Below, one piece after another: positions 32,601 through 50,600 of a DNA stretch of 64,000 bases. The notes beneath the pieces are model-generated. The model searched no databases. It saw only the letters and a list, made by a program, of their open reading frames with translations, and was not told where the DNA came from. The stretch is taken from positions 115,570,001-115,634,000 of the forward strand of contig NC_086107.1 in NCBI RefSeq assembly GCF_963921235.1. Direction: 5' to 3'. The position numbers were made by a program, and so were the translations under genes. This DNA is from Mobula hypostoma (Eukaryota). Within the stretch, counting starts at the first letter, position 1. Every line of letters starts with the position of its first letter.

Positions 32601-35600
32601 GTGACACAGGAACCTCTGTGGGAGAGTTCTTAAAATGGAGAGCCTGTTCTACTGGGGCGGCCCCACTCTGTTGACCTCAGAAATCCAGGCAGCGGTGAGT
32701 GTCACAAACTGGGGTGTTCCTCAGTTGAAGTGGATGACCATAACTTCTTCTATGCTTTGTCCTGCCCTTCACTGTCCACAGAGTGTTGCAGTAGCACCTC
32801 CCAGTCTGTTGGATCTCATTAGATCTCACCTCGCCAGTCTGCTGGAGCTGACTTCACATGCTAGGACAGGCCTGCCCCTCTCTCACCGGGGTATGAGCCC
32901 GTTGGCTACCCTTGCCTGTCGAAGCGGTGTACCAGTGTGTGGCCACTGTCCCATGCAAACAGCTGCTTGGAGCCATAGGTGAGAGCTGAGGTGTCCGCTG
33001 GAGACCAAAGGTGAGTGAGCTGCCCCAGAATGGTCACAACAAGCCCCTTTACCCGGGCGCTACCCTCCCTGGGCACCCTGTACACCCCTCAGAAGCAGCA
33101 ACTTGATACTAAATGCATAACATTTTCATTTGATGTAATCTGACCTTTCCAAATCTTTTTTTTTAATTATATGATGAGAGGAGCGGAGTAAGCGACATTA
33201 TGGATCATGTCTGATACAAGTTGTTGGTCTAGCCCTGTTTCGCCCTTTTTTTGGGTTTTTTTTTCTCTTTTTCTTTTGGGGTTTTTTTTGTTTATATATA
33301 TTTTTTTCTTTTTATTTCTTTGTTAATGTTTAATCTCATTATGAGTTTGGAAGTCTTTTATTTCTATATTATTTAAAATGCATTTTATATATGTTGATGA
33401 ACATTTTTCCAATCTCTTTGTACCAACTTTGTTATTGAGTTTATAATTTTGAAACATTAATAAAAAGATTTAAAAAGAAAAAGATACTAAATGCATTTGC
33501 TGCTTTACAGTCTCAATCTAAATGGTAGTCTTCTTTCCCAGAACGAGGACAAAGCTCAGCAGGGAGCGTTGCTGTTCCCGTGCTCTGGTCAAGACTGAGG
33601 TGACAGGAAGGGAGTGAAACACTGCTTGGCTGGAACGCGGATACTCACAAGTGCAATTGTCGAACTCCTTCTGCAGCGTGCCTGTAGGGGTGTCCAGTCT
33701 CACAGCGGAGGCCGCGGTTGTTAGAAGTAGCTGTTCATGAACCTGTGGGACGTCAGGTTTCTGTACCTCCTGTCTGATGGGAGCTCCAGGAAGATGACAT
33801 GGCCCCAATAGACAGCAGGGAAAGGGTGAACAGATTTCCCGGGAATCAACATCTCCAAGGATCTATCCTGGGCCCAACACATCAATTCAATCATGAAGAA
33901 GGCACATCAACGGCTCCACCTTTGGCTCTGTTTCGTTAGCAATTTCAGGAGCTGTCGCCAAGGACTCCAGCCAATTTCCGCAGTGCAGAGCATTGGTTTC
34001 ATCACCACCTGGTCTGGGGCTCCAATGCACAGGATGCAGGAAGCTGCGGAGGACTGCAGCCCCAGCCAGTTCCGTCATGCCACAAGCTACCCAGCATATC
34101 TTCTACAAGCAGTGTCTCAGGAATGCGGCGTCCAACATTAAGTTCTGCGACGTGCCCTCTTCTCATTACTACCATCGGGGAGGAGATACAGTGGCGAAGA
34201 CCTAGTGATTCAGGAACAGCTTTTTCCCCTCTGCCATCAGATGAGGGTCTGAATTAAGGGGAATTAAGGGCTATGGGGAAGAGGCAGATAGGTGGAGATG
34301 AGTCCATGGTCGGATCAGCCATGATCGTATTGAATGGTGGAGCAGGCTCGACGGGCCAGACGGCCGACTCCTGCTCCTATTTCTTATCTACTAATCTGTC
34401 TTATGAATGGTTCATGAACCCACAAAGATGACCTCATGATACCTCCTTTGCATTATTTATTCAATTTTTATATTGTAACTTATAGTATTTTATTTAATGC
34501 AACGCACACAAAATGCTGGAGGAACTCAGCAGGCCAGACAGCATCTATGGAAAAGAACAAACAGTCGATGTTTCAAGGCGAGACCCTTCATTGGGACTGG
34601 AAACAAAGATCAGAAGGAGGGCTGAGGGGAGGGGGAAGTGCAAGGTGGAAGGTGATAGTGTATAGGTGATGGGTGAAACTGGGAGCGAGGGGAGGGGTGA
34701 ATTAAAGAGCTGGGAAGTTGATAGGTGAAAGAGATAAAGAGCTGGAGAAGGGGGAGTCTGATAGGAGAGGGTAGAAGATCATGGAAGAAAGGGAAGGGGG
34801 AGGAGCAGCCGAGGGAGATGATGGGCAGGTAAGGAGATACGGTGAGAGGGAAAGTGAAATGGGGGAATGGTGAGGGGTGGGGCAATTACTGGAAGTTCAA
34901 GAAATCGATGTTCATGCTATTGAGTTGGAAGCTACCCAGATGGAAAATAAGGTGTTGCTCCTCCAACCTGTGTGGCCTCATTGTCGCAGTCGAGGCCATG
35001 GAGTGACGTGTCTCCACCGCCCTTCCCGTAGTGCACCCTCTTTGCCACCCACCCATGACGCTCCCTCTTCACTGTCCCTCCTGAGGTACCTCCTCCTTGC
35101 CACACGTCCAGCAGCTCTCCCTCTCCCCACCCGTCTCAAAGTGATCCCTCCTCACTGTCCCCTCCCGTGGCGCACCCCCATTTGCCGCCGCTCTTGCGAT
35201 GACCCTCCCCCGCCGCCCCCCTCGTGCATGTCCCTCCTGGAGCTCTCCCATTTCGTCTCCATTCCCGGGGCGCTCCCTCCTCGCGATCCTCCCTCAGTGA
35301 CCGTCTGCTCAGCACAGGGTGGGGATCTGTACCTGGCCTGTGGATAATTCAGGACGTGATCATCTCTTTTCATCATCACAGAGGGCATCTCATATGAGAA
35401 CCTGGATGCTGTGGAGGAGAAACATTCAGAAGGTAGGACACACTGAGATACACCCCCCCACTGTAAATACTGACACCCCCCCCGGGACCCCCTGTACATA
35501 CCAACACACTCCCCGTGACCCCCAGTTAATACTGACGCCCTCCCCGGGACCCCCTGTAAATACCGACACACTCCCCAGGACCCCTATAAATACAGACACA

Positions 35601-47600: not shown

Positions 47601-50600
47601 CCCTCCTCCTCTCACTATCCCCTCCTCCTCCTGTTCCCCTCCTCTCCCCTCCTCCTCTCACTACCCCCTCCTCCTCCTGTTCCCCCTCACTGTCCCCTCC
47701 TCCTCTCACTACCCCCTCCTCCTCCTGTTCCCCCTCACTGTCCCCTCCTCCTCTCACTACCCCCTCCTCCTCCTGTTCCCCCTCACTCTCCCCTCTTCCT
47801 CTCACTACCCCCTCCTCCTCCTGTTCCCCTCACTCTCCCCTCCTCCTCTCACTACCTCCTCCTCCTCCTGTTCCCCCTCACTCTCCCCTTCTCCTCTCAC
47901 TACCCCCTCCTCCTCCTGTTCCCCCTCACTGTCCCCTCCTCCTCTCACTACCCCCTCCTCCTCCTGTTCCCCCTCACTGTCCCCTCCTCCTCTCACTACA
48001 CCCTCCTCCTCCTGTTCCCCCTCACTGTCCCCTCCTCCTCCTGTTCCCCCTCACTGTCCCCTCCTCCTCTCACTACCCCCTCCTCCTCCTGTTCCCCCTC
48101 ACTGTCCCCTCCTCCTCTCACTACCCCCTCCTCCTCCTGTTCCCCCTTACTGTCCCCTCCTCCTCTCACTACACCCTCCTCCTCCTTTTCCCCTCACTGA
48201 CCCCTCCTCCTCTCACTACCCCCTCCTCCTCCTGTTCCCCTCCTCTCCCCTCCTCCTCTCACTACCCCCTCCTCCTCCTGTTCCCCCTCACTGTCCCCTC
48301 CTCCTCTCACTACCCCCTCCTCCTCCTGTTCCCCCTCACTCTCCCCTCTTCCTCTCACTACCCCCTCCTCCTCCTGTTCCCCTCACTCTCCCCTCCTCCT
48401 CTCACTACCTCCTCCTCCTCCTGTTCCCCTTCACTCTCCCCTCCTCCTCTCACTACCCCCTCCTCCTCCTGTTCCCCCTCACTGTCCCCTCCTCCTCTCA
48501 CTACCCCCTCCTCCTCCTGTTCCCCCTCACTGTCCCCTCCTCCTCTCACTACCCCCTCCTCCTCTCACTACCCCCTCCTCCTCCTGTTCCCCCTCACTGT
48601 CCCCTCCTCCTCTCACTACACCCTCCTCCTCCTTTTCCCCTCACTGACCCCTCCTCCTCTCACTACCCCCTCCTCCTCCTGTTCCCCTCCTCTCCCCTCC
48701 TCCTCTCACTACCCCCTCCTCCTCCTGTTCCCCCTCACTGTCCCCTCCTCCTCTCACTACCCCCTCCTCCTCCTGTTCCCCCTCACTGTCCCCTCCTCCT
48801 CTCACTACCCCCTCCTCCTCCTGTTCCCCCTCACTCTCCCCTCTTCCTCTCACTACCCCTCCTCCTCCTGTTCCCCTCACTCTCCCCTCCTCCTCTCACT
48901 ACCTCCTCCTCCTCCTGTTCCCCTCACTCTCCCCTCCTCCTCTCACTACCCCCTCCTCCTCCTGTTCCCCCTCACTTTCGCGTCCTCCTCTCACTACCCC
49001 CTCCTCCTCCTGTTCCCCCTCACTCTCCCCTCCTCCTCTCACTACCCCCTCCTCCTCCTGTTCCTCCTCACTGTCCCCTCCTCCTCTCACTACCCCCTCC
49101 TCCTCCTGTTCCCCCTCACTGTCCCCTCCTCCTCTCACTACCCCCTCCTCCTCCTGTTCCCCCTCACTGTCCCCTCCTCCTCTCACTACCCCCTCCTCCT
49201 CCTGTTCCCCCTCACTGTCCCCTCCTCCTCTCACTACCCCCTCCTCCTCCTGTTCCCCCTCACTGTCCCCTCCTCCTCTCACTACACCCTCGTCCTCCTT
49301 TTCCCCTCACTGACCCCTCCTCCTCTCACTACCCCCTCCTCCTCCTGTTCCCCTCCTCTCCCCTCCTCTTCTCACTACCCCCTCCTCCTCCTGTTCCCCC
49401 TCACTGTCCCCTCCTCCTCTCACTACCCCCTCCTCCTCCTGTTCCCCCTCACTGTCCCCTCCTCCTCTCACTACCCCCTCCTCCTCCTGTTCCCCCTCAC
49501 TCTCCCCTCTTCCTCTCACTACCCCCTCCTCCTCCTGTTCCCCTCACTCTCCCCTCCTCCTCTCACTACCTCCTCCTCCTCCTGTTCCCCCTCACTCTCC
49601 CCTCCTCCTCTCACTACCCCCTCCTCCTCCTGTTCCCCCTCACTGTCCCCTCCTCCTCTCACTACCCCCTCCTCCTCCTGTTCCCCCTCACTGTCCCCTC
49701 CTCCTCTCACTACACCCTCCTCCTCCTGTTCCCCCTCACTGTCCCCTCCTCCTCTCACTACCCCCTCCTCCTCCTGTTCCCCCTCACTCTCCCCTCCTCC
49801 TCTCACTACACCCTCCTCCTCCTGTTCCCCCTCACCGTCCCCTCCTCCTCTCACTACCCCCTCCTCCTCCTGTTCCCCCTCACTCTCCCCTCCTCCTCTC
49901 ACTACCCCCTCCTCCTCCTGTTCCCCCTCACTGTCCCCTCCTCCTCTCACTACCCCCTCCTCCTCCTCTTCCCCCCACTCTACCCTCCCCCTTTCTCCTC
50001 TAACTCCCTCATTCCCCCTTCCCCTCTCTCCTCACTCTCCCCTCCCCCTTTCATTCCTCCCTCCCCTCCACCTCTTATTTCCCCCTCCTCCTTCCTTTCC
50101 TCCTTTCCTCCTTTCCCTCTCATTCCCCCCTCTCGCCCTCCCCGCTCTCCCCTCCCCCCTCTCGCCCTCCCCTTCCCCTCCCCCTACCCATCCCTGCTTC
50201 CCCCCCCTCTCGCCCTGCCCTCACCTCTCCTTGCAGATTACATGAACCCAGAGTCCGAGGCTGGAAGTGTTTCTTCAGAGGGTGAGGACTGATTTTTCTG
50301 ACCCCGTCCCCACTCTCCACCCGACTGCCGACACCACAGGACAGACTGACTCCCATGCCCACTGTCTGTGTGTCTAGACGGCTGCAGGTGCTGACTGCCT
50401 GCCCACAGACCAGGGCCACATTGATTTGTTCCTGTGCTTTACAGATTTCTGCCCCGTGTCTGAGAGCAGTGGGTGGGATGGCCCATCCTCTCTGAACAAC
50501 AGAAGTTGGCCCTTCGGCCATACATTTTGTACCACAAACGGTGTCAAATTAAAATCTGTTCTGTCTACAAAATATCCATTCCCCACACTTTCACATGTCT

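Follow-up and report, generated by a model that had tools for sequence, protein, structure and literature searches.

A 64,000-nucleotide (nt) stretch of the genome of the devil ray Mobula hypostoma (assembly GCF_963921235.1, contig NC_086107.1, positions 115,570,001 to 115,634,000 of the forward strand), in the following called the window, was analyzed and found to contain three nucleotide-identical copies of a 45-nt exon with the tyrosine motif YMNP. The exons belong to the cytoplasmic tail of a single-pass receptor with two immunoglobulin (Ig) domains, which can be assigned with good confidence as the ray orthologue of CD19, the signaling partner of the B-cell receptor. The three copies are probably an old multi-copy array that has been kept uniform by unequal exchange or conversion, a reading that is held with moderate confidence.

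Three identical exon copies and the units around them

The copies are located on the forward strand at positions 40022–40066 (copy 1), 43239–43283 (copy 2, which carries the flank alleles of copy 1), and 50237–50281 (copy 3, after which the common sequence stops at 50502). The exon was found exactly three times on the forward strand and not once on the reverse strand of the window. The splice sites are intact, with a cag acceptor and a gtgagg donor at all three copies. The exon is symmetric (phase 1-1) and stays in frame, i.e., a twelve-exon model of the host gene with all three copies is open and has no stop in 285 codons. Number, identity, splice sites, and frame had been described in a first-pass annotation of the sequence and were confirmed. 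The same is true for the differences between the surroundings of copies 1/2/3, namely G/G/A at 40197/43414/50412 and G/G/T at 40232/43449/50447 in the flank, and C/G/G at 36249/41141/44350 in the spacer. About 300 base pairs (bp) of non-satellite DNA around the exon are 99.3–100% identical between the copies, and, thus, the similarity of the exons is not due to chance.

Within each unit, a 31-bp minisatellite is followed by about 296 bp of unique spacer and by a 48-bp CT-rich minisatellite, and the unit closes with the exon and a tail of about 220 bp. The introns separating the exon copies have lengths of 3172 and 6953 bp. Unit 1 has at its left edge a 31-bp minisatellite with a variant order unlike that of units 2 and 3 (35457–36036), followed by the spacer (36030–36325, four to five substitutions to copies 3 and 2) and by the 48-bp minisatellite (36309–38800), after which there are about 1.2 kilobases of degenerate CT-rich DNA. 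At the duplication junction (40286–40347) the exon tail is joined to degenerate 31-bp units. Such a junction occurs only at 40286 and 43503, i.e., after copies 1 and 2. Unit 2 has a 31-bp minisatellite with the same variant order as unit 3 (40309–40928), a spacer with one substitution to copy 3 (40922–41217), and a 48-bp array in which the site of a crossover or misjoin would lie (41190–43200). The second junction and the 31-bp minisatellite of unit 3 (43503–44137) have three small deletions compared to unit 2, and they are followed by the third spacer (44131–44426) and a 48-bp array in which 116 units were counted (44400–49992).

Between copies 1 and 3, the exon block has 2 mismatches in 302 positions and the spacer 4 in 296, and the variant order of their 31-bp arrays is different. 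Together with the unique junction, these differences make it very likely that there are at least two genomic copies. A single copy is ruled out by the junction, which exists only between units, and by the allele differences. Copy 2 has a mosaic structure. The 31-bp array and the spacer of this copy are of the copy 3 type (652 of 653 aligned bases identical, three small gaps), its exon block shows no difference from copy 1, and, therefore, the switch point sits in the 48-bp array. This is in agreement with the exchange within the satellite that had been proposed in the annotation. The mosaic fits the product of an unequal crossover between two-copy chromosomes, or equally that of an assembly misjoin.

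In the case of a misjoin the assembly would be over-expanded, the true number of copies would be two, and the middle copy would have resulted from a false join of the 48-bp array of copy 3 to that of copy 1. Copy 2 can be wholly explained as such a chimera. Its 48-bp array is irregular, with 19 unique units of 31 (copy 1: 11 of 51; copy 3: 22 of 116), and small deletions flank the copy, three of them just downstream, as a misjoin would yield. These features speak against three genuine copies in the window, and with the irregular array the window by itself is compatible with two copies as well as with three. However, a crossover yields the same mosaic, the CT-rich stretch upstream of exon copy 2 is a poor match to both copy 1 (68.8%) and copy 3 (72.5%), and three copies are also present in the annotations of two other species (see below). 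A misjoin is, thus, regarded as quite improbable. Noise and real length variants could not be told apart by the deletion rate per bin. In a run search, 18 of the 24 listed runs contained part of the stretch, all of them assembled contigs, and no RNA run was among those listed.

The first junction unit differs at 8 of 31 bases from its nearest left-edge counterpart (10 for the next best), which points weakly to an old age of the junction.

Further features were observed in and around the units. Each exon copy contains an internal CAG (exon positions 13–15; 40036, 43253, and 50251), which could be an alternative acceptor. Its usage would remove five residues including the tyrosine, like in the predicted isoform X4 of the stingray Hemitrygon akajei. 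In addition, each unit contains a 24-nt exon-like piece of phase 1-1 with a good acceptor and a gtgggt donor (40230–40253, 43447–43470, and 50445–50468), and one of the diagnostic copy differences falls inside it. It is used in none of the seven stingray models. A role as a frame-shifter was discarded, because the piece is in frame and absent from all seven models, and an origin as a decayed paralogue of the 45-nt exon was discarded as well, because the similarity was not significant (404 of 2000 shuffles). An intron further upstream contains an extended array of the 31-bp minisatellite of the units on the other strand (27276–29041), which forms an inverted pair with the arrays at 35457–44137.

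The module in other rays and in sharks

Three identical copies are present within each of the three myliobatiform proteins that were found, i.e., that of the window and the predicted proteins of Mobula birostris and H. akajei. The multiplication thus appears to be genuine, as had been annotated. The module is YLNPESDAGSVSSE in M. birostris and YLNPESDAGSASSE in H. akajei. Compared to the window, 2 of 14 and 3 of 14 residues differ, respectively, and no residue differs within any species. All three window copies have M and E where both relatives carry L and D, two changes that are specific to the lineage of the window, while V is found in both Mobula modules and A in that of Hemitrygon. At the protein level, at which the relatives are known, one to three module differences are fixed between species.

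Separate evolution of the three copies would be expected to yield 7.9 private changes at the 3 × 14 sites, but none was seen (Poisson P = 3.6e-4). The expectation was calculated with the rate of the other exons, under the assumption of a clock and equal rates: outside of the repeat, the window differs from H. akajei at 37 of 230 residues and from M. birostris at 6 of 229. The module is not more constrained than the other exons (3 of 14 versus 37 of 230). Homogenization extends to the introns, in which copies 1 and 3 show only the few differences given above (2 in 302 bp and 4 in 296 bp). The annotation had called the multiplication recent. This is probably wrong, because the identity of the copies mirrors recent homogenization, and species-specific, self-identical copies are seen in all three rays.

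Either an old array has been homogenized, or the exon was newly triplicated on three occasions, and the former is simpler. In the latter case, lineages with one or two copies would have re-expanded lately at a duplication hotspot and would have reached three by coincidence or selection. The intron DNA of the copies is only about 1% different, and duplications do recur, since the electric ray Narcine has duplicated another unit and a more distal exon of the window (exon I) is a further, older duplicate. However, this would need three separate triplications of the same exon to the same count in three of three species, and the divergence of the first junction unit is a weak hint of age. Repeated independent expansion is, therefore, possible but unlikely. 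An old array under homogenization also has points to its disadvantage: the relatives are known from predicted proteins, with exon borders inferred from the protein alignment, the M. birostris model is incomplete and contains a minisatellite translated in error, and the data are compatible with an old array as well as with repeated new expansions. According to the accessible part of PMC7614867, a 50-million-year-old stingray falls on the branch of the eagle and devil rays after their separation from Dasyatidae, and, therefore, the array would be at least about 50 million years old. A third protein search yielded no further ray species.

For H. akajei, four of the six isoform models contain three whole copies. 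Isoform X5 has two copies, and in X4 one copy is shortened by the five residues that include the tyrosine. These variants may represent real splicing or an ambiguous placement of reads. They would be in accordance with copies that are real but functionally redundant, i.e., most mRNAs would include one or two of them, and the array would be a neutral by-product of minisatellite instability. It fits to this view that identical exons are not placeable by short reads. The three whole copies in four of six models, the intact splice sites in every copy, and the conservation of the number three across species argue against redundancy, which is regarded as very improbable.

In the three shark tails (3 of 3), a single module with YLEP or YMDP precedes one that is longer, and the motif is not of the YxN type. 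In Narcine the motif is YLNP, and a two-module cassette has been duplicated separately, so that two YLNP are present in 11 of 11 isoforms. YMNP and YLNP fit Y-x-N and lack the methionine at position +3 of PI3K sites; PI3K-type sites, YEPM and YEKM, are located further downstream. The Grb2-type YxN motif is used here as defined for NTAL in the accessible part of PMC2196071. By sequence, the rays appear to have changed the motif to the Grb2-type YxN and to have multiplied the module more than once.

The old array, which is the favored reading, could have evolved as follows. A single ancestral tyrosine module of 15 residues, as represented by YLEP or YMDP in sharks, would have become a Grb2-type YxN module in rays and would have been multiplied before the split of devil rays and whiptail stingrays. 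Because the exon is of phase 1-1 and has 45 nt, the frame is kept at any copy number. The units of 3–7 kilobases would misalign and exchange via the long shared minisatellites, and because of this new mutations would spread to all copies or vanish (concerted evolution), while the copy number may drift around three. Each copy that is included in the mRNA would add one docking site for SH2 domains to a multi-tyrosine scaffold, provided that its tyrosine is phosphorylated. A more far-reaching idea is that rays rewired CD19 as a multivalent Grb2-type scaffold. In this case the YxN module would have been multiplied independently in electric rays and stingrays, selection would have maintained three copies over tens of millions of years, and the valency would be dialed for each transcript by splicing, through exon skipping and the internal acceptor that removes only the tyrosine motif, with an effect on B-cell signaling. 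This is clearly unlikely.

Tandem exon duplication and concerted evolution are already known from other genes. The antimicrobial peptide genes of pipid frogs also have identical tandem exons in cis and alternative splicing, and concerted evolution by conversion or unequal crossing-over has been proposed for them, as described in the accessible part of PMC3899252. In contrast to the ray exons, which multiply a docking motif in a receptor tail, the frog exons multiply secreted peptides. Cichlid agrp2 shares with the ray array a tandem duplication of exon and intron, a variable copy number, and trouble with the assembly (PMC6916709, accessible part). In that text no concerted evolution was found for agrp2, whereas the ray copies group by species. 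LAT/NTAL adaptors have small exons with several Grb2-type YxN motifs like the ray tail (five YxN motifs in NTAL; PMC2196071, accessible part). This likeness is one of working only. These adaptors have no Ig ectodomain, and no sequence match to LAT/NTAL was seen. With the ray repeat, probable concerted evolution of one signaling exon can be studied in a compact and testable setting, which illustrates that the identity of copies need not mean a young duplication. Sharks, the electric ray, and the stingrays offer a natural series of one, two, and three or more YxN modules, in which the number of docking sites can be compared to the signal strength of the B-cell receptor.

Probable assignment of the host gene to CD19

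The host gene was recognized in a search with one upstream exon, which found one protein among 16 candidates, an uncharacterized H. akajei receptor with Ig domains. Mapping of this protein back to the window with tblastn revealed twelve exons and 11 introns, from the transmembrane exon to position 59561. The ectodomain lies upstream of the window. In the orthologues it consists of two Ig-type regions with an intervening segment, followed by one membrane helix, and the transmembrane exon of the window matches theirs. Pfam Ig matches were obtained at residues 26–109 and 153–223 of orthologue P0001.

When 1.84 billion representatives were searched with a profile, 150 proteins were listed. Eight matched across the whole ectodomain or the transmembrane region and tail and were named; the other 142, mostly Ig matches in several stretches, were not. 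The named proteins comprise six uncharacterized shark and ray proteins and two amphibian CD19 proteins (E values 5.9e-9 and 5.9e-8). In a search against solved structures, CD19 (7JIC) had rank 3 of 438 (E 2e-5, from the second Ig domain to the transmembrane region), below two FGFR chains. In the alignment, the YEPM of the window (59487–59561) and the YEKM of its relatives are placed opposite YEDM and YENM, which both amphibian CD19 proteins have. With Foldseek, CD19 accounted for four of the five matches at E<=0.001, the fifth was MXRA8, and with VIA-align 7JIC had the top rank (Z 6.1, root-mean-square deviation 16), tied with nectin-1. The model used had a mean predicted local distance difference test score (pLDDT) of 50, and its alignment contained the two amphibian CD19 proteins. 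A first structure model, built from four sequences (pLDDT 35), was unusable. With BLASTP, a shark tail matched caecilian CD19 weakly (E 0.01), and the ESM Atlas yielded generic Ig clusters only.

The gene model P0025 of the shark Carcharodon (XP_041035956) is a CD19-like protein fused to a Rabaptin domain (E 2.8e-54), and two adjoining genes were probably merged in this model. In the human genome RABEP2 adjoins CD19, in the order ATP2A1-RABEP2-CD19, and a Rabaptin gene may be the neighbor in the shark as well. No neighboring gene is present inside the 64-kilobase window. The probable identity as CD19 is based on the two amphibian CD19 proteins among the named matches, with further support from the rank among solved structures, the YxxM motifs, the Foldseek and VIA-align results, and the Rabaptin fusion.

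Several results weigh against the assignment. The fold model reached TM-scores of only 0.18–0.22, in addition to its low pLDDT and an alignment that already contained CD19 proteins. A phmmer search with a single ray protein retrieved no solved structure at E<=0.001, and another one with a single ray protein had butyrophilins at the top, while CD19 was absent from the 60 matches listed.

Tetrapod CD19 (human 7JIC, 6AL5, 7URV, and 7URX; amphibian XP_053327321 and XP_030064594) resembles the ray protein in its two Ig-type regions with an intervening segment and one membrane helix, and in a long acidic multi-tyrosine tail that is encoded on many small exons and has two YxxM motifs near its end. 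In contrast to the ray tail, the two amphibian tails have no identical repeats. As stated in the accessible part of PMC3520838, human CD19 is encoded by 15 exons and carries nine tyrosines in its tail, and the tail tyrosines of mammalian CD19 recruit Lyn, Vav, Grb2, and PI3K. According to one review, CD19 arose in amphibians and fish are without it (PMC9141580, accessible part). No paper on shark or ray CD19 or on this repeat was found in a literature search that covered part of the listings, outside of subscription journals and supplements. The accessible parts of PMC13572128, PMC13558645, PMC6562523, PMC12250417, and a mobulid genome preprint contained nothing on ray CD19. If the assignment is true, the ray and shark orthologue moves this B-cell co-receptor to the base of the jawed vertebrates and provides a B-cell marker for elasmobranchs.

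Further exons and other features of the window

The remaining exons are all located on the forward strand. The transmembrane exon (13470–13574) has an atypical donor, A/GTTAAG, and its residues match those of M. birostris P0167 at 34 of 34 and those of H. akajei at 29 of 34 positions. It is followed by the first cytoplasmic exon (18364–18409, phase 1-2, found by tblastn with the H. akajei protein), a cytoplasmic exon of phase 2-1 (22022–22101), one with YENV (29511–29633), and the YENL exon directly upstream of the repeat (35382–35432). Downstream of the repeat are exon G with YVKP (51356–51424), an older paralogue of the tyrosine module, exon H with YAIP (53809–53913), exon I with a fourth YMNP (58619–58684), which is an older duplicate of G/E, and the last exon found in the window, with the YxxM motif YEPM (59487–59561). 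In shuffle tests the observed score was reached in 0 of 2000 cases for G versus I and in 2 of 2000 for E versus I. The ray tail, with its three identical modules and the older duplicates, has six to seven YxN motifs.

The donor of the transmembrane exon was at first taken for a dead one (GT to TT). This was dropped, because the phase-1 donor A/GTTAAG gives an open frame that matches the relatives. The sequence at 13572–13583 (A/GTTAAGTAT) looks like a consensus shifted by one base. Shifted pairing of U1 at splice donors is described in the accessible part of PMC11162779. Read-through past this donor leads to an immediate stop, and the M. hypostoma, Mustelus, and Pristiophorus models all end there, which may be the reason that annotations show the gene in pieces and without a name.

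Several minor elements were also seen. A 30-bp minisatellite at 18472–18984 is translated as a long proline/glutamine repeat in M. birostris P0167, probably an annotation error. An intron contains a perfect two-copy tandem duplication of 110 bp (16539–16758). By eye, an inverted pair of similar sequences was seen around a CT/CA-rich stretch (13787–13871 and 14772–14915), which is perhaps a small fold-back element. Also by eye, a long GC-rich open stretch at 62230–64000 has a CCHC-like motif near 62810–62870, and it looks like a retrotransposon ORF1 that was inserted before the remaining tail exons.

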